Assembly: GCA_965178125.1 (NCBI GenBank)
Contig: OZ237739.1
Location: 1,364,001-1,428,000 of the forward strand
Direction: 5' to 3'
Source of the DNA: Bilabrum cf. latius
Taxonomy: Eukaryota
Length of the DNA stretch: 64,000 nucleotides
Both the position numbers and the translations under genes were made by a program. The notes under the pieces are model-generated. The model had not been told where the DNA came from, ran no database searches, and saw only the letters and a program-made list of their open reading frames with translations. Every line of letters begins with the position of its first letter. Positions within the stretch are counted from its first letter, which is position 1. Of this stretch, positions 2,993 through 62,822 are shown in pieces.

Positions 2993-5900
2993 TCACACCG
3001 CGCCTCCAATGGCCCTCACAAATGCATCGACATTCGGCACCGTCACGACGGCCCCCGCCCTCTTCATGTGGTCCAAGTAGGCCTCCCAGTCGGGGCTGCT
3101 CCTCAGCGTGCGTGCGCTCCCCACCACCCAGCAGCAGTAGCGCGCCCTCGTCAGCGCAACATTCATACGCCGAACGTCGCGCACGAACCCGATGGTGGCG
3201 ACTCGCCGCGCCCTCGCGCCCCCACCAGCAGCAGCAGCAGAAGGGGCAGCACCCGCGGCACCGGACCTGCCTCCATCCCCACTTGCCAAAGCACCGGAAC
3301 CTACTCCCTTGCCGATCGCACTCGTCACACCCTTCTATGCAGCAGCAGCAGCAGCAGCAGCAGTGGTGGCGCCCACTGCAGCGGCCGGAAGGGGCAGCAG
3401 AGCAGCTCCGGGGGCATGTCCCAGCAGCGAGGACGGGCCAGCCGACGAGGACGACGACGACGACGAGGAGGAGGAGGACGAGAAGGAGGAGGAGGATGAA
3501 GAAGAGTCGGCGGCAGCAGCAGCTGACTTGACCCCAGTGCCCGCTGCCGCAGTCCCGCTAGAAGCACCGCCCACCTTCCCGTCCCCTCCGCTGCCCATGT
3601 CCGCCAGGTCAACGCCCACAGGAGGCGGCTGTGCCCGCACGGTGGACAGCACCACCACGTCCCTCTCCTGCCCCTGGGCCCCGTCCACCGTGCTGGCGTC
3701 CACACGGCAGGGCGCCAGGGGACGGTCCGGGAACGGCTGGGTCAGCGGGTCCACTGGCTTGGAGAGACCCCCATCGGACCCCTGGGGTACGGGTGCGCCG
3801 GATGTCCCCTTGAAGGGGTCGTAACCCCCGGAGGCGGGGCTGCCCTCCTGTGTGGCAGCCCGGGCGGCCCTCTCCGCGGAGGCGTTGGCCAGCCGCACCG
3901 CAGTGCCGTGCATCTCTCTAAGCAGGGCCAGCTGCTTCTGGTACGGTGTCAGCAGGAATACGCTCCCCTTGAAGTCGTGCACCGCCCCTGTGGGTGCCTT
4001 GCCCCTCCATCGCCGCAGCGCAGTGACCAGGCCCACGGCGAGGCGCGCCTCGGCAGGGTTGGCGTGAGACCTGCCCTCCAGCAGCCCGGGCGTACTCGCG
4101 GAGAACTCGGGCTGCGCGCCGGGCACGCGTGTCGGTTCCGCAGCGCGCGCGGCGCCGCCGTGCCCCTTCTCCCCCCCTTCCAGCACGTCGAAGAACACCG
4201 TCGGCCTGAAGTGGGACAGGGCGTGCAGAGCCACCGCCCTGGCAGCCCCTTGCACCGACACCGCGTCCCTGACCCTGCCACCGTAGAAATGGGTCGATGG
4301 AAAGGCGGAAATGGCAGGGTGCGAGCGGTACTGCGTGTCGAGAAGGTGCACCGGGTGCCCGCCCGCCTGCAGCCTCGCGAATAGGCTGCGGCTGAGGCCC
4401 CTGGCGGCGGCGAGGGGCGACAGGATGGTGGCAGGCAGCTGCTTGGGGTCCCCCACCAGGACGCACCGCGTGGCGCCCTCCCGCAGTGGGATCAGCGTGG
4501 CCGATTCGGTCGCCTGTCCTGCCTCGTCGATGACAACAGAGGCGAACCGCCGGCCCCGCTCCCTGCGGAACTGCTCCAGGGCTTCCACAGCGGAGGAAGA
4601 CAGCGTGGTGAACACGATCTCGCAGGCGTCCAGCAGAGCCATCCGGAGATTGTCCCTTATCTCGCCGTGGCGCATCCGGGTGGCACCACCCCCGCCACCA
4701 AGCGCGTGCCTCGCGCCTTGCCTGGCCGCCATCGAGGCAGCGTTCCTGTCCGCCGCCAGCCTCGCCCACGCGAATGCCTCTCCCTTGCAGCTGTGCAGGT
4801 GGTACGCCTCGAGGCACGCGATCAACCGGCCGGCAATCTCGGGATGCACCACGGCCTGCTGATTTCCGCCAGCCGCAGATGCTTTGCCGCTTATGCCGGA
4901 CGGTGCCGCGGGTGCTTTGTCCGCAAGCAAGCGGTGGTGCCTGCGGATCCGCTCCAACTCAGCGGCGGCTTCTGCCATCCCTCGCTTGGCGTGCTCCAGA
5001 CCAGCATGCGCGCGCACCGCGTCGAGGCATAGGTACCCCTGGAGCTGGGACTCCAACGACACGCCCAGCCGCTCCACGGCGGGGCCCACGCCTGTCCCCA
5101 CTCGCACGATGGGCGGGCTGAACGGTCGCAGGGTCCCATCCAGCATGGCCCCAGGTTTGGCCACCCGCTCGACCAGATTGTCCACCGCTGCGTTCGAGGG
5201 CGCGGCCACGAGCAGCCTGGGTCTCAGCTCCAGAGCGTCCCTCACCTGCTCGAGATAGTCGGCGGGCCTCAGCTCCGTGCTCAGCAGCCAGCGCGCCAGG
5301 CCGTGCACGCCGCGGATCGCTGCTGCGGAAGTCGTGTGCCTCTTCCGGCTCAAGAAAGCGTTGATCGAGTCCCCGTCTTGGCCCCCGACCGCGTGGCCTG
5401 CCTGTCGCAGCGCCGACTGCATCGTCGTTTCGAACACGGTCGGCTTGGAGGCGCGCTTGCTCTTACGCTGAATGCTCATGGCTAGCCCTGCAGCGTTGGG
5501 ATGACCGCGCTCGGAGCTTGTCTTCGCCCGCTTGGGTGCCGGTGCACCCGTCGCAGGCTTGGCTTCCCTCCTTTTGGGTCCTGGCTGGACGTCAGTGTCC
5601 CCGTCATTCTGCGGAGAGTCGCGCTCTGGGCTGGGGCTGCGGGGCCGCTTCTGGCCCACCTCACCCGCCCCAAGGGAGCCTGCATGCTCGTCGTCCTCCT
5701 CATCCTGGTCCAGCCCGGGCGGCATGTCTGGATCCATGTCTTCTGGTGGTTCGTCCTCGGGCGAGGGCGGCGGCTCGTGCTCGCCTGTCGAGCTGCTGGA
5801 CGCCGTCCCCGACGCCACGCTTTGCCCCAGAGCGGCCTACCCTTCGGGAGCGGGCCCCAGGATGCCCAAGCTCGCCGGCTCTGGTGCTTGGCCTGCGCCA

Positions 5901-7831
5901 GCACCTCCGGTATGGGAAGCATCCCCGTGGCCCAATGTCCCGCTCGCACTTCCAGACCCCGTGGAAACGTCTGCACCCGTGCCAGTGCCCGACCCAGCCT
6001 GCCTGGCATGCTCCCCTGCCTGCAGAGCCGCCTTGTCCTCTTTTTGCAAGGCCTCCTTGCCGCGCAACAAGGATTCGTGATACCCCGCCACCGCGCTCAG
6101 GTGCAGTGCATTGAGCAGCTGCAGCACCGCCGTCGACTTGCCCGTCCCTGGCGGGCCCTGCACCAGGGTGAAGCCCCTCCGCGTGGCGGCCCCCACCACG
6201 GCGTGCATCTGTGAGGGGTTCAGACGACCTTCGAGGTGATGCATGAAGGCGGGAGACAGTCTCAGCACGTCGTGCGTCTGCTTCACCGCTGCCTGCACCA
6301 GTCCGTTTGTGCGGTCACAGAACGTGGCGTAATCTTTGGCCCTGGCTTGCCGAGCGGTGTCGCCGTCGCAACCGCCTCCGCTGGTGCTGCTGCTGCTGCT
6401 CTGGCCCCGCTTGGCATCCTACACGATGGAATGCATGAGACTATCCGCTGGCAGCCCGCGCATGAGCGGCACCCGGAGGCAAGGGTGCAGCGAGGCCGCG
6501 CCAACGGCCGCTGCCAGCTCCCTTAGCGCCGTGACCGAGTGTCCAAGCGGCCACGCAAAAAGCACCGGCCTGTCTTTCTCATCCCTGTGCACCTGCCGCC
6601 CCCTCCACAGCCCCATGAAAGCGTCTGCCTCCTCGTCCTCCTCCCCCTCCTCCTGCTCCCATCCGTCCGACTCGGCCGGCAGCTGCACCCGCGCCCGCCT
6701 GTCCCCATCCACCACAACCTCGTGCAACCGGTCCGAGTCCACGAGCACACGGGCCGCTCCAGAGTACACCCCCCCTCGCACCATGGCCACGCAGTGCGGG
6801 AAGGGCGGGGCCCCCAGTTCCCTGCGTAGCTCTGACACGTCCGCGCTGGTCGCTGGCCCGCGGCTGAACGGATCCGAGCTGGACCCTGCGCCTGGCGCCC
6901 GATTCGCCAGCCGTCTCCTGCGGCGGGAGCGCGCCTGCTCCCAGCAATCCATAGGCGAGAGCTGCGCGCCAGTGGTGGTGCTGCTGCTACTGGCGGCACC
7001 GCTAGTACCCTGGCCGTCCGCCGCGCCCGATGTCAACCCGGAGCCAAATATCCTCCGGTCGGCGTTCTCGTGCTAGCCCAGCTCCTGCCACAGCCCCGCG
7101 CTCGAGCTTGAGCTCGATCCGGCGACCGTCGCGCCGGCGGACCGGCCCTCGCTGCGGCCCGTTACTGCGGCCTGGTGCTAGATCCACTGAGCGCATCGAG
7201 AATCCGCGCTCAGCAGCACGAGGTGAGAGTCGCCCAGCCGGGAGCGCCACGCGCCACCCGGAGCAGCTGCTTGCGGGGGCCATCGGAGATGGGAGGGGAG
7301 TTCCTCGGTGGCAGTGGAGGTCGATGCTCTTGATTTAGAAGACAACTCCTGGGATTTTCCGGTCGACGATACCACGCGGCTGCCTGGGGCGGACTTTGGG
7401 AGTGAGCGTGCTGCGACTCGCTTGGGCTTCTTCGGCCGGATCGCTACCGGTGCTCGTAGCTCTCCAGTGGCAATGCAGCCCCTCATGAGGTCTGAACTAG
7501 CATCTTGTTTCTCGTTCTTTAGCACTCTTGTCGTAACTGGATGGTATACCACAGGTAGGCCGGCAATTGGCCACGGTGCAGAAGGATGCTCGCCTGGCTT
7601 TGACCGCCTTGATTTCCCTTTTATGTGGGATTCCAGCTCCCCCCGAGCTCCTTCGCTTGCTTCATCGATAATGAGAGGCACGGTCCCCTTTAAGTACTGT
7701 GTTGTGGTTGTGTAGGATTCACTTGTGTGGGGCAGCGACGCGGAGTAGGCTTGCTGGGCCACTTCGCATGTATGCGCCAGACTAGGTAGCCGGAGCAAGA
7801 GAAGAAGGGCCTTATCTAGGTCCAGGCTCAT
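2993..7831 (-). CDS. SEN1/senataxin/Upf1-like SF1 RNA/DNA helicase
   Basis: One frame via TAGs at 7178, 7073, 6419, 5837 and 3335, ending at TGA 2993. Motifs LNPSQ, QGPPGTGKS, APSNAAVD, VIDEAGQ, LVGDPKQL, QYRSHP, TVDGAQGQE, RRMNVALTRAR. The start codon is less certain. Confidence 0.88.
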
Positions 7832-7986
7832 ACGTTCAGGTGCTAGCGCGTGCGCTTTGCCGGAAAAGGTGGTCTACGCAGTTTGCAAATCCGGAGCCGG
7901 CGAATGGGGCCCTGCAACCCCCACAAAACATTCATTCTCTTGATTCGCGCGTTATATTTAGATTATAATACTCTCCATTGATCGGT

Positions 7987-9338
7987 ATGTCGGGCGTGCC
8001 AGAATTTGATCTGAGTAAGGCAACACAGCCCACCATTCTGCGCTGGCACCAGGGCTGTTGGGCATCGCGATAATCTTTGTGTTATGGTGCTTCATGAATC
8101 GCAGAGAAACCACAGTACGACCAGTCAAGGTATTTAGGTCGCGTGAAGCAGTTTTTCTAGATTACAGATCCGCTGTAAGTTGGCGAGTTGACAGTGTTCG
8201 CATCGAGAGGCAGAAGATGCAGGCAACAAATCCAGCAGCAACGTATTCCTCAATGCATTCCTTGCGCAGGTCGCTGCTCAACTCAGATTCAGATCTGGCA
8301 AAGGCTCGGGCGGACTTGGCTACGTTCGAGGGGCACCAAGCACTTCGCGCTAAGGATTCCTCGTTGCCTCGCCTGCCGCCATCGTACACTGACGAGAAAC
8401 TATGGAACGCACGGCGAATCGTTGAGTCAATGTGCCACAGCGATGACGGGCATGTCATCCATCCGTTGCTCCGCATGAGCGCATTTCTTCCCGTGAATCT
8501 TCCGATCACGCTGGGGATGACAGTGTTCGGGACGACCACGGCGAGCCAGCTCTTCTGGCAGTGGATGAACCAGAGCTACAATGCGGGCCTGAACTACGGG
8601 AACCGAAACCTGTCAGCTGAAGTATCCATGATGGACCTGGGGAAGAGCTACGTCACAGCGACGGCCGTGGCGTGCTCTACCGCATACGGGATGGGCAAGC
8701 TGGCCCAGGCAGCCGAGAGGAGCCCTTCCCTCCCCGCCTTGCTGCGGTTCGCGCTCCCCAAGTTCGTCCCGTTCGTGGCGGTTGCAACTGCAGGGGCCTG
8801 CAACGCCATCGCGATGCGCTACAAGGAGATCGTGGACGGTATCACGGTGCAAGACGAGGACGGCAACGACCTGGGGCAGAGCCAGGTGGCGGGCAAGAAG
8901 GCCATCTTCGAGGTGGCCCTCACTCGGGTGGCCCTCCCCGTCCCCATCATCCTAGTGCCCCCGCTACTGTCGGCGGGTCTCAAGGCATCGGTCCCCGGCC
9001 TGGGGGGTGCCCTGAAGAGGAGCAGGGGGCTGTCACTGGCGCTGGACATCGGGCTGAGCACCTGCTGCCTCTACTTTGCGCTGCCCTGCGCCATCGCTCT
9101 TTTCCCTCAGCAGAGCTCCATTCCGATCGCCGACTTGGAGCCCAGCATCCAGAGGAAGTACGCGGAATTGCACCCAACCGCGGCGGCAAAATTGGCAGCA
9201 GTCCCTGCCATCGCAGCGGCTGCGGGCGGAGGCAGCCCTGCGGGGGCAGCCGGCGGCTCTGGGGCCGAGGATATCATGGTGGGCAGGGATGGGGCCCAGG
9301 GGTCTGCTCCCATGGCCACGTACAACAAAGGACTATGA
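7987..9338 (+). CDS. SFXN: Sideroflexin (mitochondrial tricarboxylate/serine carrier)
   Basis: Exons 7987-8014, 8105-8174, 8270-9338 with GT-AG introns. PQYDQSRYLGR..FF(TAG 8158)ITDP, FWQWMNQSYNA..NYGNRN, PFVAVA, YNKGL, then TGA. Confidence 0.93.
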
Positions 9339-9519: not shown

Positions 9520-11997
9520 TCACGTTGCACCTTTAGCCCTGGCCTCTTGCAACCGTTGCTGCCTCTGATTGAGCCTTGCCACGTAGCTGAGCTGGGCCTT
9601 CTCCCCAACCCTGGCAGATGCGGGAGTGGCAGAAGCAGCCGCGCTCGAGAGGTGCACCACGGTGGACACCCCCGACATATCACGAAGCGCTGCCGGCTTG
9701 ACGACATTCTCTAGTTGTTCGCCCGTACCCCTGCCTTTCGCAGCGCCGTCTTCGCTAGCCTTCGACTCGTGCTTGGGACCCGTGTCGCGCTTTCCGCCGC
9801 CCCTCGTCTTGCCGCCCCCCTCTAGAGCACGACCGCCTCCACCAGGATTCTTGCCGCCACCCTGCCTCGCTTTCTACGTTCGCCCACCCATCTGCTTCGA
9901 GGGCCGCCGCCCAACAATACCAGCGCGCGCATCACCGCCTGCCCGAGCATCCGCACGAGACGCCGAGGTACCGGAAGAGCTGGACGAAGCTAAAGCACTT
10001 GCACCGGCTGCGACAATACCAGGACCTTCCGTCCTCGATGACACGTGGAACTCATTGGGCTTGCCGGGCGACTGCTGCTGCATCGGGGCGGCCCCGCTGG
10101 CCTTGGCCTCTTCCATCTGCTGCTTGCGCTTCCGCTGGAGCGCAAGCCTCTCCTTGAGGCTGAGCTTGGACTCGTCGATGGGCCCGTCAGGCAGTGGGCT
10201 GCTACTGCCTCTGCTCGAGAGGTGCACCACCGTAGAGACCTTGGACAGGTCCCGGATATCCGCCGGCTGAGCCACCTCTGCGTCAGCTGCGTCACCGCCT
10301 GACTTGCCGCTCTTGCCGCCGCCCTTGCTCTTGGAGCCGTGGTGCTTTCCATCCTTGGCTCCTGCCCTGCTCCCAAGACTGTCCCCAGACTGGATCCGAG
10401 GCCGTCTTCCGCCGTGCCCGGACCCCTTGCTGTGATGCGATCCCGCCCTGCTCCTGCCCCCATGGTGGGAGGGCTTCCCCTCGGCGAGCTCCACCATGAG
10501 GGCAGGGCCTGAGGCCCCCTCCCCCCTGCCCTTGCCCGTGCTGCCGCGCCTGCCGCCCCTGTCCCTGCCACCATCACCTCTACGGTCAACTGGACGGTCG
10601 GACCCGCCGGGATGACGGCCTGTTCCCCTGCCACGGCCCCTGCCGATGCTCCCGCCGAGTCCACCACCCGCCGCACCTGCCCTGACGGAAGCAACCCGCG
10701 GGGCCATCGTGCCTCCTTTCTTCCAGCGGCCGCTGGCGAGACCCACCGGCTAGCTCGACACAGCCTTGGCCGCTGCTGCTAGCAGAGGATCTGGACGGCT
10801 GCTGCCGCCGCCATGACTATGGCCGTGACCGTGTGCGGGGAGGTCTCGCACCTAGCCCCCGCCCTTGCCCCTGCCCCTGCCCCTGCCCCCGCCGCCCCTG
10901 CCCCTACCGCCCTCCCGACCCTTGCCCCCACCTTGGCGGTCCTAGCCCCTGCGGCGGTTGCCATGATCGTCGCGGGACTGCCGATGCGGGACACGCTGGT
11001 GACTTCGGGTGCTGCCGTGGCCCTCTTCGTCCCCATCGTCGCCCTCATCGTCGTCACGCATGGGCGCGTGGGAAGCCGCCGGCCCAGGGTCTGCCCCACG
11101 CGCCGGTCCGCCGGCTCCTGCTGGAGCGCTCGAAGCTGGGCGCCAGGCCGCGCCATCTGGCCTGTCGGTCGGACCAACGTCTAGCTCGTGATCGCTGTCA
11201 GCGTCTTCCATGGGTGAGGACCCCTCGCCACCGTGAGCCGCCGCCTGCTCGTGCTCGCCTTCGTCAAACGAGTCGCCGTCCTCGTCCTCGTCCTCGTCCT
11301 CGTCTGAATCACTGCGATCCCATACGCCATCCGCACCCATTCCGACGCCATCAAAGTCATCAGCTAGCCAATCAATGTTTTCCGGGTCGTCAAACTGTTG
11401 CGGCAGTTTGCGCTTTGGCTCTGGCTGCATCGGCGACGCCCGGGCCATGCCTGCCTCGGAACTCTCTGCGCCATCGTCTTCGCTGCCGTTGCCGGTACCA
11501 AAGGCTTCAGGATGCGCTTCTCCCGATCGTACAGCTCTTTCGATCCCCTCAGGAGCTGGGATGCACTTTTTGCCAATGAAAGAAAACGGGATGACGGTCT
11601 GCTTCACCCACTCCTCGCCGTACATGGTGTAGTGATCCCGAAACATGTCGTTCGACAAAACAAATGCAGGCTAGTGATCTTTTGCGTAGGTTAGCATAAA
11701 GTGGTCATCGTGCGCTTGACTTGGAACTATCACAACGACTTCTTCCTTTTTCAGCTTCTCGAGGAGATCTGACGCAACGTACTTTTCGAAATACCGAGGC
11801 AAAATGGCAAAGGATTTGTGATTCTGGGAACGCAGGCTCTTGACTGCCGCTTCAACTGCACCTAGGTTTGGTTTCTCCTTAGACCCCTCCCCTACCGCTA
11901 CATTCGGCCCGTCAACTACAACCAGAGCTCGGTACTCCTCCGTCCCGCCCATTACAATATCAGTTTGCTCAGCATCATTTTCTGCTACTCCTGCCAT
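9520..11997 (-). CDS. NYN/PIN (Zc3h12a/Regnase-like) ribonuclease domain protein with long low-complexity C-terminus
   Basis: VVVDGPNVA, HDDHF and VLSNDMFRD acidic catalytic motifs. One frame via TAGs at 11671, 10942, 10852, 10750 and 9874, ending at TGA 9520. Confidence 0.82.
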
Positions 11998-12243: not shown

Positions 12244-15200
12244 TCACGCCTCCTCCCCGACGCTCTTGAGTGTCTGGCTCAAGATCTCCCGCATGTTCTT
12301 GGAGGCTCCCGCCTGCAGCTTCTTAACCTGCTCGATCTGCAGGGCGCGCAGGGAGGGAGTCGACGTCCGGGCCTTGGTGAAGCACCCGGCCATGCGCGCG
12401 CCCACCTGCGCGTTCTTCTCGTCCACCCGCTTGAGCATCTCGGCCACGGCGGCGTACCCCTTGCCGGAGGCGTCGTGGAAGGCCCGAGGGTTGCCGAATG
12501 CGAACCCACCCAGCAAGGCGTACACCTTGTTGGGGTTGGTGATGGCGAAAGCAGGGTGCTTCTGCAGCTCGTCCAGCACCTCGGGGCCCTCGGCAGTCGC
12601 CGCGCACATGCGGAACCACTTGTCGATCACGAGAGCGTCGTCCTTCCACTTGTCCCCGAAGGTCCTCACGCTCTCCACCCTCTGAGGGGCGGAGGCAGGC
12701 AGCGCACAGCAGGCGGTGAAGCCCGCCATCTCGTCGGACATGTTGTCTGCGTCCTTCTGCAGGGCGAGAGCCACGTCCGCCGTGGGCTTCTCTGGGGCCT
12801 TGGCCCCCTCCGCGTTCTCGCCCTTGATGAGCAGCACCAGCAGGATGGCCCGGAGGTCCCTGCAGCTCTTGTGAAGCACCTTCTCCCACGTGTACCCGCC
12901 TCGCAGCACGTCTCCGATCCTGCCCAGCACCGCCTGCATGTCTTCGCCCAGCCGAGTGGCCAGCTCAACCTGCACGCTCTTCTTGGCCTTGCCCAGCGCC
13001 ACCGGGTCCACACACCCGTAATGCTTTACTGCGGCCTGCTCCAGCTCGGCGAGGGCGGGCATGGCCAGGATGTGCGCGGACAGGGCGGGGTCCAGGGAGG
13101 CCTCGCCTGCAGCGGCCTTCCCGTCCACGTCAGCGGATCGGATCACGCGCCCCATGGCCTCCACGAACGCGTCGGCCACGCCGTCGGCCAGCTTGATCTG
13201 CTCGGCGCCCTCCTTGGCGCCCTCGGGAGCGGGCATCCGCGCCAGGATCACATCTGTGGCCACCGCTGCGGCCGCGTCGGTCTTGCACACCACGTCAGTG
13301 TCGTGCGCCAGACGGAAGAGCCTGTTCTCCAGCGAGTCGCCCTCCACGGTGAGGCGCACGGGAGCGCTGAACCCGCGCAGCAAGGAAGGCACGGGCTGCG
13401 CCGGCACGCCCTCTAGCACGAATGTCTGCTCGGGCTCGGTCAGATGCAGCACCACCTCGGCAGAGGGTGCAGCCGTGGCGGCGGCGGCATCATCCCCGGG
13501 GGCGTCGACGCCCGCGAGGATGGCCTTGCCCCAGCGCTGGCTCCACTCGGCGGGGTCGGCGCGCAGGGTGACCGGCATGGCCTTGCCGTCGGGGCCCAGC
13601 AGCGACATGCGCACGGGGATGTGCAGCGCGGGCTTTGGGCCCTTCTGCGTGGGCGTGTCGGGGACTGTCTGTGACAGGGTGACGCTGCAGGTCTTGGACG
13701 CCTCGTCCCAGGCAATCTTCGCGTTCACCTCGGGTGTCCCAGCCACGGCGTACCACCTGCGGAACTGCAGGAGGGGCCTGTCGCCCGCCGCCAGGAAGGG
13801 TGCGTCCACCCACCTGGACATGGAGTCCTCTACGCTCTTCACGGAGCCGTCAATGTCCTTGAGTCCTCCCCAGTTGGCGTCCTCCATGGCCGTGCAGAAG
13901 TCGTTGCAGGTGACCGCCTGCCCGTCGTGCCTCTCAAAGTACAGGTCGGTCGCCCGGCGGAAGCGGTCCCTGCCCAGTATCGTCTCGTACATGCGCACCA
14001 CCTCGGCACCGCCGCGATACACTGTCATCGAATAGAAGCTGCGATACTATAGAACGGGAGAAACGGATGCTGATTGCAATCGTGAGCAACATATATGAAC
14101 GCATCGCCAACGACGGGGCAAAACCCTCCGAATAAGACGGTGCCAGACTAGATTCCGCAAGCACTGCAGGATCACACGAGACGCCGTGCATCAATGTTGC
14201 CTCACTTGTCGATGGCCTGCACCTCGTCGGGGCGGATGGGGTGGGACATGGGCCCGGCTGCCTCGGGGAACTGGGCGGCCCTGACCACGCGGACCGTGTC
14301 GAGCCTCTTGCTGACCGCAGACAGCTCGTCCATGGAGAAGCTCTGGTCCCTGAACACGGTGAAACCCTCCTTTAGGGTCACTGCGGGGCAATATGAAAGA
14401 TAGGAAGGAGAGAGGGAGCAATGGAACCGACGCTGACAGACTCGCAGCGCATGCCCCGCATCGAATCACAGCCACATCGGCACGCACTGGCTTTGCATGG
14501 ACGAGGCCAGCACGCGCGGTAAACCCAAGGTCAAGACCGGCATCTAGTGGCCTCTCACGCTGGAACCAGTCCTGGCAGGTCACGCGGTTACCCGAATAGT
14601 TGTGGAAGTACTCGTGTCTGCGGAAGTTGGGGGAGGATAGTGAAACGAAGAGAGAGCAGGCGTGGGCGTGCGAAAGCAAGGGCGATTCGTCTACACAGCA
14701 GGAGCAATAGTCAGCCACAGCCCAACATAGCTCACCCGATCACTCCGGTGATGAGATCCAGGTCCATGTCGGTGGCACTCTTCTCTGAGCCCAGCACGTA
14801 CTTGGTGTTGAACACGTTCAGGCTCTTGTTCTCCATGGCCCCCATTGTGAAGTCTGGGGTGGCCACGATGTTGAACTGTTCCAAATCGTAGATTCGACCG
14901 AAGCGGCGCTCGTCCCAGGCCATGGACCGCTGCAGGCTGCGCATGGCGTGCCCGCACCGCTCGATGTCGTCGCCGATTGCGAAGATGCGCAGGCGCACGT
15001 CCACGCCGTCCTTGCGCTTGAACGAGTCCTCCAGCACGTTGAGGTCGCCCGCCACCAGAGCGAACAGGTAGGTCGGCTTGCGCCAGGGGTCCACCCACTT
15101 CACCCAGTGCTTGCCCTCGGCGGAGGCGTCCTCCGGCGTGCCCTCTCCCTTCTCCACGTCGTTGCCGTTCGAGAGAAGGTAGGGGCTGCTGGCCTTGTCG

Positions 15201-15793
15201 CCCACGACGGTGCACGTGTATGAGCTCATCACGTCGGGGCGATCGAACTGGGGGCAGAAGCGCCTGAATCCCTGTGCCTCCATCTGCGTGATGTACATCT
15301 TGCCGCCCTGCGCCTTGTACAGGCCGCTCAGCTCCGTGTTGTCTGCGGGCGTGTGCTTGGACACGATCACGAGCTCGAAGGTGGCAGCCGATGCGCCGTC
15401 AGCGCCCGAGGCGCTCGCAGCCGCGCCTTTGCCGGCAAGCGACGCGATCGCCTTTTCGACCGGACCGGCCGCAATTTTGAGCAAGTCGTTCTCCTTGTCG
15501 TGCTCGAAGCCATCTGCTCCAGCAGCGACAGCAGTGCCCGCCACAGACACCTCCAGCACATCGAGGAAAGAAGAGGCATCCAGCTCGATCGTCTTGGCCG
15601 CGCTTCCACTCGCTGCCTCAAAAGCAGGGTTAGGACGAGTGGCCAGGCTAGCCCGGACGGTCGTTTCGTCTCCGAGGTCCACCCGCAAATCGACCGTATC
15701 GACCAGGAACGGAGGGGGCAGGTAGTCCAGCCTGCGGATAACCTTGTTGGCCTTTCCTTGCTCTGATGCGTCACCGCCTGCAGCTGCTGCCAT
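12244..15793 (-). CDS. pepN: M1 aminopeptidase N (PepN-type)
   Basis: Exons 15793-14736, 14617-14559, 14380-14206, 14038-12244 (3087 nt). GAMENK, HEYFHN..GNRVTC.DWFQLTLKEG, NFY..TVY, NPNKVYAL, then TGA. No in-frame TAG. Confidence 0.95.
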
Positions 15794-28701: not shown

Positions 28702-28768
<67 letters not shown>

Positions 28769-50070: not shown

Positions 50071-52758
50071 GTTGCCTGGATCTGAAGATACGGACGTTGT
50101 CAGGAGGCTGTAGGTAGTCGTCTCCGCGGGCGTCGATGAGGCCAGACGGGGTGGCGCACTGGACACGGTGCCAGGCCCATGTGCCTTGCCCGCTCACTAG
50201 TGGTGGTCTTTCATCCAACTCGCCCGAGTCTTCGCCGCGGTTCCCGGATTTGATGCCTGCTTTCTGGCTGATAAAACCTGCCAAGGGCTCATTCGTGATG
50301 CAGTCGCCGGCACGTCGGCGGCAGTACGGCCGGGAGCAGTAGCAGGGGGCAAGGCTCCATCTGGCAAGGCTGCAGCAGAATCACTTGCGGCGGGCAAGCC
50401 ACCACAGTTTCTCACTGGACCAGCGGACGCGCTGCTTCCACCGGTACTGCGAGCTTTGGTATCCATGTCAAGGAATGGCAAATGCGTCTCCACTGCTGCT
50501 GCTGCCTGCGTAGAAGCGGGAGTCCTGGACGGCATACTGTTGTTGCTGAGCAAAGCGCAAGACGTCAAGCCCAGAGATCCCGTCCGACTGGCACAAGTGC
50601 AAGACAAGGATGCCCTTGAGGCACAGAGATTGATTGAGTTGAAGCAAGAGGAGGCCAAGCGGCTAGCCAGGGCAGCGGCAAGCAAGGGCGAGGGCGAGGG
50701 CGGGCCGTGGGCCAAGGGCACAGGGTATGGATACGATGGTGATGATGGTGGAGCCGACCTAGAGATCAATGAAGCCGCCAAAGAGCGGCAGCGGATGCGC
50801 CGCGAGCTATCTGCGACTGCGTTTGAGGCTGCCAGCGCGCTCTTGCACGCAAGTAAGCCAGAAGAGGGCAAGGCGGTGCCCAATTAGATCTGCGGGTCGC
50901 TGCTCCGCTCCCTGCAGGCGTCTTGTGTCCCAAAGCTGATCCGGGCTATGAGTCATCAGGGTGAGCCGGACATCAGGGAGGAGCCGGCTGTGTTTAGGGG
51001 CATGGCGCACCTCGTGCAGGCGCTCGCTGGGTGCCGGGGCTGCGCCGCTGCTCTCGAGCCAATGGACGCAATCTACACCGAGGACAAAGGGGAGAAGTTG
51101 GACGATGCGGCAACTGGCGGCACAGATGCCCTTGCAAGCAGCTCTCGCGCAGTGATTGCAGACGCAGAGGAGGGCATCTTGGCCTCCATGAAGCGGCTAG
51201 CTAGGACATGCAAGCAGGCCCTGGAGATGATCGACCTGGAAGACGAGTCGGCAGCTGCCGTCGCAGCCGGAGCACCCGAAGAGGCGGCTGCAGCTGGGGG
51301 TAAGAGCAAGGCAGTGGCTGCTGACCCGGGTGACAAGAGCAAGGCAGTGGCTGCTTGTCCAGGTGACAAGAGCAAGGCAGTGGCTGCTGACCCGGGTGAC
51401 AAGAGCAAGGCAGTGGCTGCTGACCCGGGTGACAAGAGCAAGGCAGTGGCTGCTTGTCCAGGCCTCAAAAGCCGACAGCCACGAGAGGTTGCAGTCATGC
51501 GATCGATCATGTCGACCGCGGATCGTGTGGAGGAGGCTGTCAAGCAGCACAGGGAGTAGCTAGCGATGAAGCAGAAGCTGCCAGCGGGAGGAGTGCCTCG
51601 CTTGTGCTCGCCTGCCTCTGGTGCCGGCGCCCCCGCTGCTGCCCCCTGTCCCGGTGCCGCCATGAAGGCCCTGAAGAAGCTGTACGCAGAGAGGATGGCA
51701 GACCTGAGCCTGTGCAGCAGCATGAAGGGGCTTGCGGGATCAGGGCACAAGTACACTGCCACCATGCAGTCGCAGGGCGAGTACAAGCCAAGCGTTGCGC
51801 AGCGCGTCCTGACCGAGGTGCGGGGGATGCGAAGCGGCCTGCCAAACTCGTGGGCCTCCAGCATCGTGGTGCGGTACGACAAGCGCAGGCCGTACGTCAT
51901 GCGGGCCTTCATCGGCGGGGTGGAGGACACACCATATGACAGCGCTGCCCTCGTGTTCGACATTTTGGCCAAGAAGGACTACCCTGCGAGACCACCAGAG
52001 TGCAACGTGGTGAGCACGCATGGCGGCAGGATGCGGCTGAACCCCAAGTGAGTCTAGTAGACAGAGCCAAGCGGGCCCGCTTTAATCCCATGCACTGCTC
52101 TGCCGCACTGCCAACTCACCTTCCGAATTCTTTTCTTTGTACTGACCATAAGATGGTGCCCTTACTTGCCCTTGCACCGCACGCTCGCAGCTTGTACGCC
52201 GACGGCAAGGTGTGCCTGTCATTGCTTGGGACCTGGGCCGGGGGCGGCAAGGCTGAGGGATGGACCAAGCAGTCCACCATGCAGCAAGTCCTGGTGAGCA
52301 TCCAGGGTCTCATCCTCGTCCCCGAGCCAGCTTTCAACGAGCCCAGCGTGGAGCAGTCCCGAGGCACGCCTAGCGGAGACCGAATCAACCGGTATGAGGA
52401 CAATGGAGGGTACGAGCACATCCGCGAGAGGTCCATCCAGTGCGGCATGATCGACATGCTGCAGAAGCCGTACAAGGGCTTCGAGGACGTCATCAAGGCG
52501 CACTTTCAGATCAAGGGGCCATACATCCTTCAATCGATCGACAAGTGGATCGAGGAGGCCAAGACGTCCACCAACAAGAGCCACCGGGAGACTCTCGTCC
52601 GCATGAGGGGAGAGGTCAAGGCCGAGCTCGACAAGATCGGCATTGACCCTGAGGCCGGGCGATTGTGGGCAGCCTACACAGGAGAGGGGAAGAAGGAGGA
52701 ATCCGGGGCGGGTCCCGCGCGGGGAGGGGCAGTGGACGGAGAAAAGAAAGGGGGCTGA
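50000..52758 (+). CDS. BIRC6/Bruce-type ubiquitin-conjugating (E2) domain protein
   Basis: Exons ~50000-52047 and 52191-52758. WAKGTGYG, DTPY, YP..PP, RLNPN|LYADGKVCLSLLGTW, QVLVSIQGLILV.EP.FNEP. TAGs at 50111, 50198, 50885 and 51557, ending at TGA. The start is uncertain (frame open from ~49877). Confidence 0.85.
51302..51463 (+). repeat. 33-bp coding minisatellite x5 (KSKAVAA[D/C]PGD)
   Basis: Units at 51302, 51335, 51368, 51401 and 51434. Confidence 0.95.
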
Positions 52759-54111: not shown

Positions 54112-54173
54112 TGCCACGGTTGGGGGGGCGGTTTGGCCTGATCAATGCCACGGTTGGGGGGCGGTTTGGCCTG
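54112..54173. repeat. ~28-bp tandem duplication TGCCACGGTT(G)6-7CGGTTTGGCCTG
   Basis: Two copies (54112, 54146) between the convergent YPEL and ESF2 3' ends. Confidence 0.85.
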
Positions 54174-54226
54174 TTTAATGCACATGCACCACTCCGGATC
54201 AGGCTGCTGTTGTGTTTCAATTCGAT

Positions 54227-55423
54227 TCATGGCTGCATCGGCGCGCTCCCGCCCTTGTCTTTCTTTCCCTTTTTTGCTTTCTTCTTCTTCTTCTGTTTCT
54301 TGGCCTGTTTCTTCGCTCCCTTGTCCAAATCGGCCATCGCTCCAGAGAGAACGAATCGGCTGTCAGATGCGGCCGCCTGCCCCGATCCGGACCTACCACT
54401 GCTAGCCGCGCCCTTCTTTTTGCCTTCCTATTTCTGCTTCCCGCTGCCCTTGCCCTTCGCTCCCGCCTGTTTCGAGCCTGCGTCTGCCTCTGCCTCTGCC
54501 TCTGGCCTTGGCCTCTTCTTGCCCAGTGCGGCTTCTCCTCCCTCTCCACCCCGAGACGAGCCAGACGAGTCGCCAGCTCGGCCCCCGCTACCGCCTACTG
54601 CAGCGCTACTGCTGCCGCTGCTGCTGCTGCTGCCGAAGCCCCCGGCGACGCCCTCGCTTACCACGGGCAGCTGCTTGAAGTGCCGCCGCACCACGGCACG
54701 CTCGGCTGCGACGGATGGCGCCACCGCTCCTCGCTCCAACACGTCTCTCGCAGATATCTCTCCCGATCTGACGGCCTCCACCGTCTTGCGCTCTTCCACC
54801 CGGTGCAGCGTCCTGGACTTGTCGAGCTGCTGCCTGTATGCTTCCGTGTCGCGCTTCGCCTATGAAAGCTCCGCACGGAGCCGTTCCGAGCGCAGGCGCT
54901 TCTCAAATCGCTGCTTCAGTAGGAGGTGCTGCCACTTGAACCTTGGTAGGTACTTGAGGTTCCACAGGTCGGCGGCGAAATGGCTGCGCTGCGAGCCCTT
55001 GCCGGTAACCATGGGTTGGCTATTGAGCATCGCAGCTACCTCTCTCGCGTCCTTTTTGTTCATAAACTCTATCCACCCCTGAGAGTAGCGCAGTTTTTTG
55101 TTGCCGCCTTGAGCAACCCTGTGCAACCGGGCACCCTCTTCTTCGGCGGCAAGGTACACGCGCCCGATCTCTGCGTGGTCCTCCAGCAGCTGCCTGATTC
55201 TTTCCGGGCGCATTCCGGGTGGGACTCTGCTCATATAACATACGCCCCGTCGGCTCTGCTCCGTCTGAAACTTGCCAAGGGCTTCAGTGCTCAGAAGGTC
55301 AGGTGCAACTGCACCGTCGCTGCCCGAGCTCTTCCCAGAGTCGCTCTCATCGCCCGAACTGGACAACTCTGCAGCTAATTGCTCAATTTCCTTTGCCTTC
55401 GACGCAATCGATACCTTTGACAT
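54227..55423 (-). CDS. ESF2: Pre-rRNA processing protein ESF2/ABT1
   Basis: GVCYMSRVPPGM, YSQGWIEF, DLWNLKYLPRFKW, RAELS(TAG 54860)AKRD. Second TAG at 54428, Lys-rich tail, TGA 54227. Confidence 0.93.
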
Positions 55424-55894: not shown

Positions 55895-56847
55895 TCATTC
55901 CTCTCGCCTCCATCCCAGAACACTGGCGGCGACGGCGATGGCGGCAGTGGCAGCGGCGGCAACCCCCGCTGTTCGGAAGGATGAGCTGCAGTCGGGTGCA
56001 GTCTTCGGGAGCACGTAGTCGCCGGTGCGGCTCAGCTGGCGGGTGGGCAGGCAGGCCGATTTGGCGGCGGCGGCGGTGCTGTGGCGATCGCTCATGCGGA
56101 ACGCAAGGCGCGAGGACCCCGAAACCTTCGCAGCCGTGACACATACGTACCTCCCGGAGTACGAGGTGCCAGTCATGGTCTCGCCCCGCACCCTCCCGAT
56201 GATGTAGGCCGCGCTCGTGAACCCGGTCACCCGCCCCCCGTTGTACATGTCCGTGATGCTCATGGAGAGCTGCTGCTCGATCAGCCGGACGTTGTTCTGA
56301 GTTCTAGACACGGTGTGGTTCCACTTGGGGAAGGGGTTTGCGATCACGCACCTGCGAACCGGACGGAAGCACCGACGAACAGTGGAGAGCAAGGGTGGAC
56401 TTTGCGGCTTGCAATGGCATCTACGACTCTCCAAGGCCTGCAAACACGGAATCAAGGGTACATCCAACAAACTTACAAATCAGTTACAGTCCTTCCCTGC
56501 GATCCGCTGGTGGAGGTCATGCCGTACCGCCCCTTGAGCGAAAAAAAGTTGGTCGAAATGCGCTGGGTAGGTCCGTCAGTGCTTGAGCCATCGTCGTCCG
56601 CCCGAGTGTCATCGTCCACCGCGCGAGCATCATCAGTTCGGCTGCGGTCATCATCGCCTGCTCCGGCGTCGTCAGTGCCGCCAGAAGCATCGTCGCCCGT
56701 GGTATCATCGCCAGAGGTGTCATCGCTACCACCGTCGTCGCTCAACTCGCGGCGAAAGGTTACGCCGGCTGCGTTGTTGTCTACCATAGCCTCAGCTGAA
56801 ACGGAAGCAACGGCAATCGCGGCAAGTACACTCAGGACAGACATCAT
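55895..56847 (-). CDS. Hypothetical secreted / possibly GPI-anchored protein with Asp-Gly-rich repeats
   Basis: Signal-peptide-like MMSVLSVLAAIAVASVSA, DD-rich repeats, frame-preserving GT-AG intron 56476-56352, hydrophobic C-terminus, TGA. Confidence 0.65.
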
Positions 56848-57227: not shown

Positions 57228-60200
57228 TCATTCACGGACGGCGGCCAGCGCAGATGCTACCTCCCGCAGCAGCCCCTCCGCCGACAGCCTCGGGTCCGTG
57301 CCCTTGACAAACGCGAGCCCCACGTCACCAGCCACCTTGCACTGCATCAGCTCCCGCCGCCGAGCCAGCAGCGTCCCGGCCGCGGCAAGGACGAGCGGCT
57401 GCAAGGAGTTGAGAGCGAGCACACGGTCCCAGAGGGCGAGCACCTGCCTCGGGGCGAGCACGTTGGAGAGCGCGCCCCGGAGCATGGGCATGAGGCATCG
57501 GATCGGATCAGCTCCGATCGACGCCAGGTGTGACCCCAACTCGGGGTCACACAGGGCCAGCACCGCCTCGGACTCGGCCAGGAGGGGCAGCAGCGTGTCG
57601 GGGGCGGATGACACGGCCTGCAGGCGGCACCAGAAGCGCTAGTAGAGGGCGCGGTGCAGCGCCCACGCAGTCTCCTCCCTGGAGCAGACAAGGACGAGGG
57701 GTGCCAGCAGCTGCCCGGTGGGCCCACTTGGCACCACACCGCTGGGGCTGGCCGTGGGCACCGGCCACGGGCCGTCGGGTCCTGCCGGCAGCCGCGTCGG
57801 GCAGCCCGTGGGCCGCACCGTGCACGACTGGGGCAGGGAAGCGTCTCTGTGGAAGGCGACGCTCAGCCTGCTCACCGCATCCACGAATGGAAAGTAGTGC
57901 GCCGAATCGCAGGCCCGCTCCCCCTCGAGTGCAGCAGCCACGTCCGTCAGCAACCGGATGCCAGGGGGCAGGGGCTGGGCGGTGCCCTCAGCAGAGGAGG
58001 GGGCACCGGCAGTTGATGCACCAGCCCCTGCTGTTGCCACCGCTGCCCCATCCAGCACGCGCACGATGCCCCCGGGGGTCACCGCTAGAGCCAGCGCCGC
58101 CTTGGTCGCAAGCACCGCGCTCTCCTGCCCCGAGGGACCCTAGCCCGACCTGCCCGCCTCCTTGACCGCGCTGCGCACCACCCCCACGTGCACCTTGAGG
58201 CCCTGCGAGCAGGCCTTGCCGAACGTGCGGGCGCGGGAGGCTCGAGCTGCCGCCGCCGCCGCCGCCGCCGCCCTGCCCTCCGCCTCCCTCCTGTCCTGCT
58301 CCGCGAACGGATCGGCTGCCGCTGCTCCGGCCACTCCGCCCAGAGCTCCTGCACCAGCGCCCCCGTCCTCGAGAAAGCCGTCCTCCTCGCCATCATCCTC
58401 GTCCTCCTCGTTGGTATCAAAGACGCCCAGTTCCTCCGCATCGATGGCCAGTTGCCCGTCCCCAGCCAGCACGCCGTCGCTGCCCTCGTCCTTCTCCTTC
58501 TCCTTGCTTTCCTCCTCCTCCTCATCATCGTCCTCCTCATCGTCCTCATCCTCCACCTCTTCGCCCTCTGCCGCCTGCTTGGGCAGAGCCGCTGCCGCGT
58601 CTCCCTTGAGCAGACCGAGGGCAGACACGGGGGCCCGGACCCCGCTGCCCTTGAAGAGCCTCGCATCCGCTGCCTCCGTCTCCTCCGCTGCCCGGGCCAC
58701 CTCCACTGGCACGTCGTCGTCCCCGCGGGTAGTGCGCGGCAGCAGCCGGTACGACAGCTGGATCCCCGTCTTGGACGCGCGCAGGGGCACCCTGGCCTCC
58801 CGCAAGAGGGCGAGGTACGCCCTTCTCGCCGCCGTGCGCCAGGCCCCGTCCTCAGCCCGGGACGCAGCACGAGCCTCCGCGCTCGTCACATCACCGGCCT
58901 CCATCTCCTCCGGCACCGGTTCATCCGGCACGGGCACGCCTGCCGCCTCAGCCGCCGCCTCGGCAGCAGCCCCAGCCAGCGCCCACTCGAGTCGCACCCC
59001 CAGAGCGTCCAGCCACAGGGAACAGCGGTCCTGATCGGAGGCGCCCGCTCGGAGCTGTCGCAGCGCGCCCGCAACTGGCCCCTCCCCCTCCTCCTCGTCT
59101 TCCCCCACCACCTGGCTAGCTCTCTCTGAAGGGCCAGCAGCAGCAGCAGCAGAAGCAGCGCCCCCGTCCCCGCCGGCCTCGGCCAGCGCGGCGGCCTTGC
59201 ACTCGGATTCGAACCCGCGCGTTGCAATCGCCAGCTCCTTCCTCTCCGCCCCTAGCCTGCCCTGCGCAGCGGCATCCGCTGCAGTCTTCTTGCTCCTGGC
59301 CTGCCTCGGGGTGAGCGCCCTCGGAGTCGTTGTTCCCTGGCTCGAGGAGGAAGCAGGCCTGCCCTTGCTCGGGGAGCGATGGTCCACGGGCTCCCCCCCG
59401 AAGTCGTCGTCGTCGTAACCCATCCACGCCCCGGGGGCCTCCAGCGCGGCGGTGCGGGCCCGCGCCGATATTCCGTGTGACGAGTGCCCCGGCTCCAGCA
59501 GCCACCCGGCCTCGAAGCGCCTGCTGGCGGTCCCCGGGGCCGAGGGCAGAGCGCCCATGGATGCCAGCCGGGCGAGGAGCCGGGCCCGGCGGGGGCGGGT
59601 GGCGGCGCCCAGGGGTAGCCGGATCCGCCTCCAATCCTCGATCGGAGCCGCGGCAAATGCCTCGCCAGCGCCGCTCCCCGCCGAGCCCCCGGCCTCGCCC
59701 GCGGGGATGGACACCGCTGCCTCGCTGCGGCCCCTGTCCTCGGCAGCAGCGGTGATGATGCCCACTTCCGCGCCCGCATCGCTGGCATCAGCTCCCCCCA
59801 ATCGAACCGCCGCCCCCGCCCCCGCGGCCTCCAGCACGGCCTCCAGCACCGCCTCCTCGCCCACGAGGCAGGCCTTCTGCAGCTCCAGCGGGAACTCCGA
59901 GAGCCGCTTGCCCGGCTGTGACTGGCGGGGGTCCGGGCCCGCGGGCAGCGGCCTGGTGCTGTCAGTCGGGGAGATATCGGTAGCATCAACCGCGGCCCCG
60001 AGCTCCCTGGTTACGCTGCCAGGGCCCATCCCGACGGCGGCGCGCGGGCGGGCAGCCACGCCCAGCCGGATGGGATCCAGCTCCTCCTCCGGAGGCCGCG
60101 CCATGACGGCGCGCTTGTGGCCGTAAGACCTAGCGACCTCGGCAACCGCTCCATAGTCGATGTCGCTGCAGTGGTAGAACTTGTCCCCGGGCTGCCAGCC

Positions 60201-60602
60201 CGTCGGCATTCCTACCTACAGCGACGTCTGCAGCACGTTCCGTTCGCATACTCGCTGCAGCGCCGCAGCACTCGCTCGCACGCTCGGAATTGGTTCGTTC
60301 GCTACTGCGTCACTCGAAGCCGGGAATATTCCATCTGTTCCTGCGGATCCAAGCACACAAGCGGGTGCCGATGCTGTGCCTGGGTTTCCTTCAGCCGCAA
60401 ATCGAAAGCCTGGGTGGAGCTGAAGCTGCATAGAGGCGATGAGTGCGCCATCATTTTGCTGTACTGAAGATATTGCATCGCTGGGGTCCGAACCACCGTT
60501 AGTCTTGAGAGCATCTTGCAAAACTGCCGCGGGCAGCTCGGCCGCATGTGCAACGAGCGGGTGCTGACCGATGGTATCCAGGAGGCGACTTCGGGTTTCC
60601 AT
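57228..60602 (-). CDS. TBC (Rab-GAP) domain protein, TBC1D19-like
   Basis: One frame via TAGs at 60216, 58140 and 57639. DSAHYFPFVD, GVVP...LAPL, LY*RFWCRL, QVLALWDRVL..NSL..LVLAAA, then TGA. Confidence 0.8.
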
Positions 60603-61463: not shown

Positions 61464-62080
61464 TCACACCTCGTCCTCGGCGAGAAGCATGTTGGGGATG
61501 CCCTTCGTGATGGGGTACGCGCGGCCGCAGTTTGGGCATACAAGACTACCCTCCTGCACGTGAATCTGCGGAGGGAAAGGACATGCGCAGAACGGGGAGA
61601 AGACCTGTGGGCAACGACGAAAAGAGCTCTGTATTCAACGGCGCGGCATGACGGCTCACATCCATGATCAGCTTGTGCACCGACTTCAAGAACCCTTCAT
61701 CTTTTACTGCTCCATCAGGAATTTTCTCGGGTAGACTGGCTACACCAAGCTCAGCCGCAGTTTTTCGCAGTGCAGCCCAGTCCAACTTCGGGATGAGGCC
61801 CTCGATCAGTTCGGCGTTGAAATCGGTCGCCTCCTGGACAAGCCCCCTCGGGTTGGGAGCAATCTTGAGTGGAAATGAAAGAAGCGTACCATCGGTACGT
61901 CTTGCGGTCGCCAGACAAGCCTGTGATTGGGGATTAAACAGGGCGGCTGGTGTTTAGAGGCAGTGTGCTCCAGCAGTACCCAAGCCAAAAGCGATTTGAC
62001 TATTGATTCGTCGCAAATTACATGGACATGATACTTACTTTGACGTTACATACAAGCATATTGTGGGTAAGTAGGCGCAT
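61464..62080 (-). CDS. TRM112: Methyltransferase activator subunit Trm112
   Basis: Exons 62080-62039, 61920-61660, 61565-61464. [41 protein letters not shown], then TGA. Confidence 0.95.
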
Positions 62081-62195
62081 GGTGTGTTAGTCCTCTATTG
62101 GTCTCAAGTGCAACTTCCCCGTTCTGCCTTTGCAATATAACGTTACCTAAACATTTTAAACCAGACTCGAAGCGATCACAATCTGTGTCTCGTTG

Positions 62196-62822
62196 ATGGC
62201 AGCGACTGCGTCGTCTACCCCTGCAAGTGCAACATCATCAACTTCTTCTAGTGTTCTTGACGAGTTCAAGGAATAGACCTTGAACGATGCCTTAAAGCGA
62301 GGGCACGACGTTGTGTTTCTTGACGTTGCGATTGCCGGCAAGAAAGTAGGCAGAATAAAGATTGAGTTGTTCAACTCAGTGACACCAAAGACAGCAGACA
62401 ACTTTAGACAGTTCTGCACCGGCGAATACAAGAAAGGAGGCCTCCCAATTGGATACAAGGGGAGCAAGTTCCATCGCGTAATCAAGGATTTTATGCTATA
62501 GGGCGGAGATTTCATCAAGGGAAACGGTACGGGGAGCCTATCCATTTATGGCTCGCAATTCGATGACGAGAATTTTAAGCTCAAGCACAAGACCGGTGGG
62601 ATGCTCTCAATGGCAAACACTGGGCCGGGAACGGGCACGAACGGCTGCCAGTTCTTTGTTACCACCGTGCCTTGCGAGTGGCTGGACGGAAAGCACGTAG
62701 TGTTTGGGCGGGTTTTGGACACTGAAAGTATGAAGGTAGTCTCCATGGTGGAGAACATCCCGACGAAGGGCAGGGACGTACCGGTGCATGCCGTAGAAAT
62801 AGTTGAGTGCGGACAGCTGTGA
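62196..62822 (+). CDS. PPIH: Cyclophilin-type peptidyl-prolyl isomerase (cyclophilin H-like)
   Basis: [14 protein letters not shown]...[18 protein letters not shown](TAG 62499)[27 protein letters not shown]. Another TAG at 62274, ending at TGA. Confidence 0.93.

Follow-up and report, generated by a model that had tools for sequence, protein, structure and literature searches.

The DNA analysed here, referred to as the window, is a 64-kb stretch of contig OZ237739.1 (positions 1,364,001-1,428,000) with a GC content of 65% overall and 56 to 72% along its length, and it is intron-poor, GC-rich eukaryotic nuclear DNA of a protist. The standard stop codons break the long reading frames of the window. 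With TAG taken as a sense codon, frames of 1,643, 2,689, 1,414, 2,924 and 1,124 residues appear, and the domains recognised by Pfam in such frames include those of a superfamily-1 (SF1) helicase, TPR, RRM/Surp, a cyclase-PH-phosphodiesterase and an ABCC transporter; sideroflexin, NYN RNase, M1 aminopeptidase, UBC-fold and cyclophilin domains are found in further frames of the window (Table 1). The subject of this work is the genetic code in which these genes are written. UAG is a glutamine codon here, UGA acts strictly as terminator, and the reading frames of the window exclude UAA, as they would a nonsense codon. The status of UAA itself, whether a rare stop, an unassigned codon or a very rare glutamine codon, is weighed below.

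UAG is a glutamine codon

Counted from the first ATGs, 50 in-frame TAG codons occur in 14,124 non-redundant codons, and 54 are found in the 17,174 codons of the 20 coding-sequence pieces when these are taken from the starts of their open reading frames (ORFs). They are present in 11 of the 13 non-redundant gene models. The same coding stretches hold 76 to 82 CAA and 447 to 487 CAG codons (CAA:CAG 0.17), and TAG makes up 8.7% (50/573) of the glutamine codons. The GC content at third codon positions (GC3) of the window genes lies between 0.66 and 0.86, and TAG is absent from the genes at the upper end of this range, namely the five copies of a tandem family (0.82-0.83) and the terminal exon of the aminopeptidase gene (0.86), which carries no coding TAG. 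Such an absence at high GC3 fits a minor codon.

The identity of the amino acid was scored at two conserved columns, one in cyclophilin and one in ESF2. In the cyclophilin H gene, the TAG at 62499-62501 stands for the Q of the QGGDF motif, and a Q is found at this position in both PDB alignments (1mzw, the snRNP cyclophilin H, 2.9e-69, and 1z81); we take this residue to be the invariant active-site glutamine. In the ESF2/ABT1-like gene, the column of the TAG at 54860-54862 contains Q four times, H once and R twice in seven ESF2 homologs. The alignment with ABCC5 places an E opposite the TAG at residue 705; this column is variable and was counted neither way. In addition to these columns, the TAG at 28766-28768 of the RRM/Surp gene lies within a run of CAG codons, and other TAGs adjoin glutamine codons.

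We have also used a flank test that does not depend on ORF calls. It checks by codon usage whether a triplet is flanked by coding-like sequence on both sides in its own frame, and on calibration it had a sensitivity of 0.88 and a false-positive rate of 0.018. By this test, 35 of 700 TAG triplets are embedded in a coding-like frame on both sides.

Positions 44001-64000 of the window could be compared with contigs from other sequencing runs, two of them of RNA type (X5 and X7) and one of DNA (X1). No run is on record as RNA; X5 and X7 are so labelled only as a guess, and they are taken as RNA-bearing because joints bounded by GT..AG are seen in them and are absent from X1. These splice joints, at 52047>52191, 56349>56475 (cut +2) and 61565>61660, have GT..AG boundaries (CT..AC on the minus strand), and they fix the introns of the UBC-like, acidic-protein and TRM112-like genes. 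The RNA contigs are colinear with the ESF2-like gene over 54190-55429 and with the gene at 57228-60602 over 57236-59101, in both cases with 0 differences. When a 22-kb DNA contig of X1 is considered together with the RNA contigs, there are likewise 0 differences to the window across the ESF2-like, cyclophilin H and 57228-60602 genes. It is thus clear that the TAGs of these genes are neither assembly errors nor edited away. The RNA-derived contigs also contain the TGA stops of the ESF2-like, acidic-protein, TRM112-like and cyclophilin H genes or the exon junction of the UBC-like gene. A diverged strain that could reveal CAG/TAG or CAA/TAA substitutions was sought among the contigs and none was found, every contig being identical to the window outside repeats.

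These data bear directly on the possibility that the in-frame TAGs are not decoded at all and instead mark pseudogenes, assembly errors, missed introns, sites of RNA editing or context-dependent (ambiguous) stops, a possibility that we regard as very remote. Cases of this kind do occur in the window, since the TAG at 14047-14049, which had been counted at first, lies in an intron of the aminopeptidase gene, and the TAGs at 49916 and 49934 lie in a frameshifted relic ahead of the first ATG of the UBC-like gene. The 50 TAGs, however, are spread over 11 of 13 gene models with long frames and intact Pfam domains, and one of them occupies what is presumably the catalytic-site glutamine of cyclophilin; the sequence agrees in RNA and in independent DNA contigs across three of the genes; and no gene ends in TAG, and TAGs come within 66 codons of a stop.

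UAA is absent from reading frames

In contrast to TAG, no TAA is found in frame 0 of the 17,174 codons, as against 32, 34, 17, 16 and 29 in the five remaining frames of this DNA; from the first ATGs, the count is 0 TAA in 14,124 codons versus 50 TAG. The frame-0 ORFs were delimited with TAA as a stop, and two checks free of that circularity were therefore considered. In ORFs delimited by TGA only, every extra TAA triplet either precedes a start codon or lies on an antisense or off-frame strand. In the flank test, 0 of 260 TAA triplets are embedded in coding-like frames.

The number of TAA codons that would be expected beside 50 TAG can be derived from the A/G ratios of the CAR, GAR, AAR and TTR codons (R being A or G), which are 0.14 to 0.27 and lead to 7.4 to 14.3 TAA. 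The probability of observing none is 6e-4 to 6e-7, or 4e-4 in a binomial test at the CAA share. The data would be compatible at P = 0.05 only with at most 0.06 TAA per TAG, a ratio approximately three times below that of any other A/G codon pair here. At the scale of this window, reading frames thus exclude UAA as they would a nonsense codon.

This result is evidence against plain code 6, in which both UAA and UAG are glutamine, UGA is the only stop, and TAA would be missing here merely through the rarity of A-ending codons. There is something to be said for such a code, since all 14 loci terminate in TGA (a small sample), A-ending codons are indeed disfavoured (CAA:CAG 0.17), and most of the known reassignments affect UAA and UAG jointly (PMC5304391, PMC11687900). 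The very same A/G bias, however, predicts the 7.4 to 14.3 TAA given above where 0 are seen; the ratio of 0.06 or less that would be needed is not approached by any comparable codon pair, and the flank test finds no embedded TAA. We therefore consider plain code 6 improbable. A reading of this DNA made earlier from its sequence only had reported about 50 in-frame TAG, no TAA and a use of CAA, and had judged that the code does not look like code 6; the counts given here bear out the former and make the latter quantitative.

Three places at which TAA might have appeared to be in use were looked at and rejected. Eight TAA occur in a TGA-free stretch on the minus strand (61751-63517), which runs antisense to cyclophilin H and across the introns of the TRM112-like gene. 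The only terminator-like TAA, at 56473-56475, belongs to a 5' splice site, GTAAGT, as confirmed by the RNA contigs. The TAA at 49874 lies in the frameshifted relic of the tandem family ahead of the first ATG of the UBC-like gene.

UGA terminates all genes that end in the window

Within the window, 18 genes can be followed to their 3' end, and every one of them stops at TGA; they make up 14 independent loci when the five-copy tandem family is counted as one. The sequence-only reading had put these numbers at 19 genes and 15 loci; its statement that all ends are TGA stands, and its count does not, no 15th locus having been found. A gene beyond the 14 loci was sought in 52760-54230, and none was found there. 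None of the 14,124 codons is an internal TGA, and TAG ends no gene, so that by this test for ambiguous stops the terminator TGA never occurs in frame as sense. For cyclophilin H, the TGA falls at the same C-terminal position as the ends of the solved homologs, and in the aminopeptidase the Pfam domain DUF3458_C covers 320 of 320 profile positions and ends 6 residues ahead of the stop. The flank test found 2 of 1,290 TGA triplets embedded in coding-like frames. The base following TGA at the 14 loci is G in six, A in five, T in three and C in none, that is, a purine in 11 of 14. UGA is the terminator at each of the 14 loci and acts strictly as a stop.

Since TAA terminators number 0 at 14 loci, the 95% upper bound on the TAA share of terminators is 19%. 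How surprising this absence is depends on the neutral yardstick. In the 12.5 kb of non-coding DNA of the window, TAA is 2.6 times rarer than TGA (134 vs 347) and makes up 28% of TAA plus TGA; in off-frame coding DNA its share is 11 to 14%; and among the next in-frame TAA or TGA triplets downstream of the stops it accounts for 3 of 13. For TAA shares from 0.11 to 0.28, the probability of 0/14 goes from 0.20 down to 0.01, and a comparison of 0/14 with the 3/13 downstream gives a Fisher P = 0.10. The yardsticks therefore disagree, and the avoidance of TAA as a terminator is a hint and no demonstration; the all-TGA terminators exceed chance only weakly. The rarity of TAA in non-coding DNA and the GC3 values of the genes also agree with the suggestion of the sequence-only reading that GC bias is a partial explanation.

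Status of UAA

Taken together, these observations are probably best explained by a code of the NCBI table 15 type, in which UAG alone has changed from stop to glutamine and UAA is still a functional, if rare, stop. A tRNA-Gln(CUA), one mutation away from tRNA-Gln(CUG), would decode UAG and would be unable to pair with UAA, and an altered eRF1 would no longer compete at UAG. UAA would most likely remain a functional stop that is seldom used, GC pressure and a preference for UGA having presumably shifted the terminators to UGA.

Several points weigh against a functional UAA stop. The lack of a TAA terminator at any of the 14 loci means that it has no positive support as a stop; at the TAA share of 28% seen in non-coding DNA, the probability of 0/14 is 0.01; the sample is 64 kb only, and the tRNA and eRF1 mechanism is inferred throughout. 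Moreover, the UAG-only nuclear codes described in the available parts of the literature have UAA as their dominant stop, which is the opposite of the situation here (PMC5304391, PMC11687900).

These points lend some weight to another explanation, which is possible and yet considerably less likely in our judgement, that UAA has in effect lost its assignment or terminates only very poorly. In that case eRF1 would be specific for UGA, as it is where both UAR codons are reassigned, and only a tRNA-Gln(CUA) would be present; with no efficient release factor and no tRNA, UAA would be avoided everywhere, and the code would be transitional between the standard one and code 6. The 0 TAA terminators at 14 loci and the 0 in-frame TAA would both follow, the former being mildly unexpected otherwise if judged by the non-coding share of 28% and the 3/13 downstream (P = 0.01 to 0.03), and the all-UGA pattern is unusual among UAG-only codes, which keep UAA as the main stop. 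On the other hand, 14 loci still permit a TAA share of up to 19%; the off-frame share of 11 to 14% makes 0/14 unremarkable (P = 0.12 to 0.20), as does the Fisher comparison with the downstream triplets; and a GC3 of 0.66 to 0.86 predicts few TAA stops anyway. Its strict form, in which UAA is truly unassigned, eRF1 recognises UGA only and the sole suppressor is tRNA-Gln(CUA), would leave 62 sense codons, one stop and one unread codon, and is somewhat more doubtful still. If it were true, the organism would be a living intermediate in the transition of the standard code to code 6, produced by codon disappearance under GC pressure with no ambiguous stage, and this in a lineage, probably the stramenopiles, for which the literature searched gave no account of an altered nuclear code.

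Overall, then, of the three options named in the sequence-only reading, which saw in them a possible intermediate of code evolution, we favour a rare UAA stop as the probable state; an unassigned codon or very poor stop is an unlikely one, a rare glutamine codon is improbable, and all other explanations together are about as improbable as that.

Genes of the window and their host

The coordinates of the genes are collected in Table 1. The helicase, with Pfam matches to AAA_11 (7.5e-50) and AAA_12 (7.5e-39), has a frame that is open only when TAG is sense. Three GT..AG introns of the aminopeptidase gene could be read from the sequence. In the UBC-like gene, the ORF opens at 49877, an intron lies at 52048-52190 (GTGAGT..GCAG), and both exons have a weak match to Pfam UQ_con. 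The protein encoded at 55895..56847 has a signal-peptide-like N-terminus and a hydrophobic C-terminus and is small, secreted or membrane-bound. A search of the ESF2-like protein against PDB gave 0 matches. The name of the TRM112-like gene comes from a sequence motif, with no tool match, and is presumptive. No tRNA gene was found in a scan of the whole 64-kb window, and Rfam gave 0 matches in it at gathering scores.

Table 1. Genes identified in the 64-kb window, with positions counted from its first base
Gene	Position	Strand	In-frame TAG	Terminator	Remarks
ABCC-type transporter	2..2980	-	4		off window edge, end outside; Pfam ABC_membrane, ABC_tran; PDB ABCC5 1.6e-127
Superfamily-1 helicase	2993..7924	-	5	TGA 2993-2995	one ORF, ~1,613 codons
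Sideroflexin	8058..9338	+	none	TGA 9336-9338	Pfam SFXNs 7.3e-85
NYN-domain RNase	9520..11997	-	5	TGA 9520-9522	Pfam RNase_Zc3h12a 5e-20
M1 aminopeptidase (PepN-type)	12244..15937	-		TGA 12244-12246	at least 4 exons, GT..AG introns
Giant TPR-containing gene	16168..24237	-	9	TGA 16168-16170	2,690 codons; 0 TAA, 0 internal TGA
RRM/Surp gene	24782..29026	+	10	TGA 29024-29026	1,415 codons
Cyclase-NTPase-PH-phosphodiesterase	29867..38641	+	6	TGA 38639-38641	~2,900 codons
Five-copy tandem family	39183..49282	+	none	TGA ends	period ~2,142 bases; 485-513 aa; GC3 0.83; one locus
UBC-fold (E2-like) gene	50000..52758	+	4	TGA 52756-52758	TAG counted from first ATG
ESF2/ABT1-like gene	54227..55423	-	2	TGA 54227-54229	
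Acidic protein gene	55895..56847	-		TGA 55895-55897	spliced; intron 56352-56476
1,125-codon gene	57228..60602	-	3	TGA 57228-57230	weak RabGAP-TBC hint
TRM112-like gene	61464..62080	-		TGA 61464-61466	3 exons; intron 61566-61659
Cyclophilin H	62196..62822	+	2	TGA 62820-62822	Pfam Pro_isomerase 1.7e-46
PTEN-like phosphatase fragment	63409..63999	+	1		TAG in open frame; off window edge

The gene at 29867-38641 carries, in a single frame, the domains of an adenylate/guanylate cyclase, a STAND-type NTPase (AAA_16), PH and a class I cyclic-nucleotide phosphodiesterase. The last of these is well supported (Pfam PDEase_I 1.9e-68; PDB phosphodiesterases 1e-43), and the TAG at 37373-37375 lies within it. 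Judged by its predicted domains, this polypeptide would both synthesise and degrade cyclic nucleotides.

The tandem family consists of head-to-tail copies encoding N-terminal Cys/His-rich knuckles and a vWA-like core, for which the Pfam hints are weak (VWA_4, E 0.075; zf-CCCH_2, E 0.15), and the copies vary in short Gly/Ala/Pro-rich and Ser/Thr-rich repeats. Relatives of the family were sought in metagenome contigs of the Joint Genome Institute (JGI), where 54 pattern matches were obtained and 0 were confirmed. A sixth copy is present as a relic at 49790-50000 on the plus strand, directly upstream of the first ATG of the UBC-like gene; it has 61% identity over 28 residues to the zinc-knuckle motif of the family, and its frame is shifted by a 7-base deletion and contains the two TAGs (49916, 49934) and the one TAA (49874) mentioned above. 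Since the RNA contigs begin inside the relic, it is now probably the 5' untranslated region (UTR) of the UBC-like gene. At the ESF2-like gene, an RNA contig reaches 37 bases beyond the TGA and begins 6 bases ahead of the ATG, and very short UTRs and a tight gene packing are suggested there, with the proviso that contigs cannot show true transcript ends.

In all four runs, the contig word depth of two segments, 53339-54005 and 58008-58674, exceeds that of adjacent bins 10- to 50-fold. These segments contain simple repeats (a GT/CA-like dipeptide-coding run, GAG/AAG runs and an acidic Asp/Glu tract), and many contigs break or join aberrantly in them.

For the M1 aminopeptidase, a homolog search that took in only proteins of 1,051 to 3,000 aa gave Cafeteria roenbergensis as the top named match with 47% identity, the next named matches having 35% or less. 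The top named homologs of the sideroflexin are from oomycetes (40 to 48% identity), and those of the ESF2-like protein are from Saprolegnia (44%) and a fungus (42%). The host is tentatively taken to be a stramenopile, probably so because the best named homologs of these proteins come from Cafeteria, oomycetes and Saprolegnia. Other assemblies contain sideroflexins that are nearly identical, and others that are 76 to 81% identical, to the window protein, and the JGI matches of this protein are at most 48% identical. Runs from four studies, filed under four organism labels, contain the sequence of the window without a single difference outside repeats, and one 'algae metagenome' run and one 'protist metagenome' run contain small shares of it as well. 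It may be that the organism accompanies the cultures of other organisms.

Discussion

Outside ciliates the nuclear code has seldom changed, and a divergence in the fates of UAG and UAA is rarer still. The use of UAA as the main stop has served to explain why UAG alone can be reassigned, as set out in the available part of one study (PMC11687900). A GC-rich organism that reads UAG as glutamine and terminates on UGA would test this argument from the opposite compositional side, and would also show whether UAA can drop out of use entirely. There is a practical side as well. Most of the long genes here are broken when they are predicted with the standard code, as 11 of 13 models carry TAG, and annotation and protein databases would therefore be fragmented for this organism unless table 15 or table 6 is used.

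The closest known counterpart is the fornicate Iotanema spirale, in which, as described in the available text of the report, UAG is glutamine and both UAA and UGA are stops, UAG accounting for approximately 8% of the glutamine codons (Panek et al. 2017, PMC5304391). The same source points out that a CUA anticodon, one mutation from that of tRNA-Gln(CUG), pairs with UAG and not with UAA, and that the reassignment of UAG needs an eRF1 that has lost its affinity for this codon, for which the T32G change in the GTS motif of the Iotanema eRF1 is given (PMC5304391). The two codes agree in that only UAG is reassigned, to glutamine, as a minor codon (~8% there, 8.7% here), and in that UAA is not sense; they would also agree in the postulated mechanism if a tRNA-Gln(CUA) arose from tRNA-Gln(CUG) here too. 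However, UAA is described as a dominant stop in Iotanema and ends genes at 0 of the 14 loci here, where all are UGA, and Iotanema is an anaerobic metamonad, unlike the GC-rich aerobic protist with a sideroflexin that is represented by the window.

Among ciliates, the phyllopharyngeans Hartmannula sinica and Trochilia petrani have UAG alone reassigned to glutamine (table 15), tRNA(CUA) genes have been reported in UAG-reassigned species, and UAA ends 92.6 to 100% of the C-terminal alignments in UAG-only ciliates, according to the parts of the study at hand (PMC11687900). The distribution of UAG along the genes, which resembles that of a synonymous glutamine codon, is a further likeness between Hartmannula, Trochilia and the window. 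In contrast, 93.5 to 100% of the C-terminal alignments of these two ciliates end at UAA, and their genomes have 27 to 54% GC, whereas the terminators here are UGA at 65% GC. The window itself is not ciliate-like, with its long multi-gene DNA, GT..AG introns and best matches among stramenopiles.

In NCBI table 6, UAA and UAG are glutamine and UGA is the only stop; this code is used by ciliates, by Dasycladales and related ulvophytes, and by hexamitids, oxymonads and aphelids. The window shares with it the glutamine meaning of UAG and the presence of UGA as the only terminator observed. Yet UAA is an ordinary glutamine codon in table 6, and is absent here from 14,000 to 17,000 codons in which 7 to 14 would be expected. 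One of the sources for a code of this type is PMC2984419.

An uncoupling of the meanings of UAG and UAA is also seen in the rhizarian exLh, where UAG is leucine and UAA and UGA are stops (56 UAA vs 15 UGA) in the available text of PMC5304391; the amino acid differs, being glutamine here. A change of UAG alone to leucine is likewise described for metagenome-assembled genomes of TARA ciliates in the accessible part of PMC11687900. Unlike in the codes of Condylostoma, karyorelicts, Blastocrithidia and Amoebophrya, the terminator codon is here never also an in-frame sense codon. In the full texts searched, which include few subscription journals and no supplements, we found no stramenopile, and no GC-rich protist outside the ciliates, for which reassignment of a nuclear stop codon is reported. 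The reassignment of UAG alone to glutamine, a precedent that the sequence-only reading does not mention, is in itself already known, and what the window adds to the systems compared above is a code of the table 15 type in an apparently new lineage, with terminators that are, unusually, all UGA.

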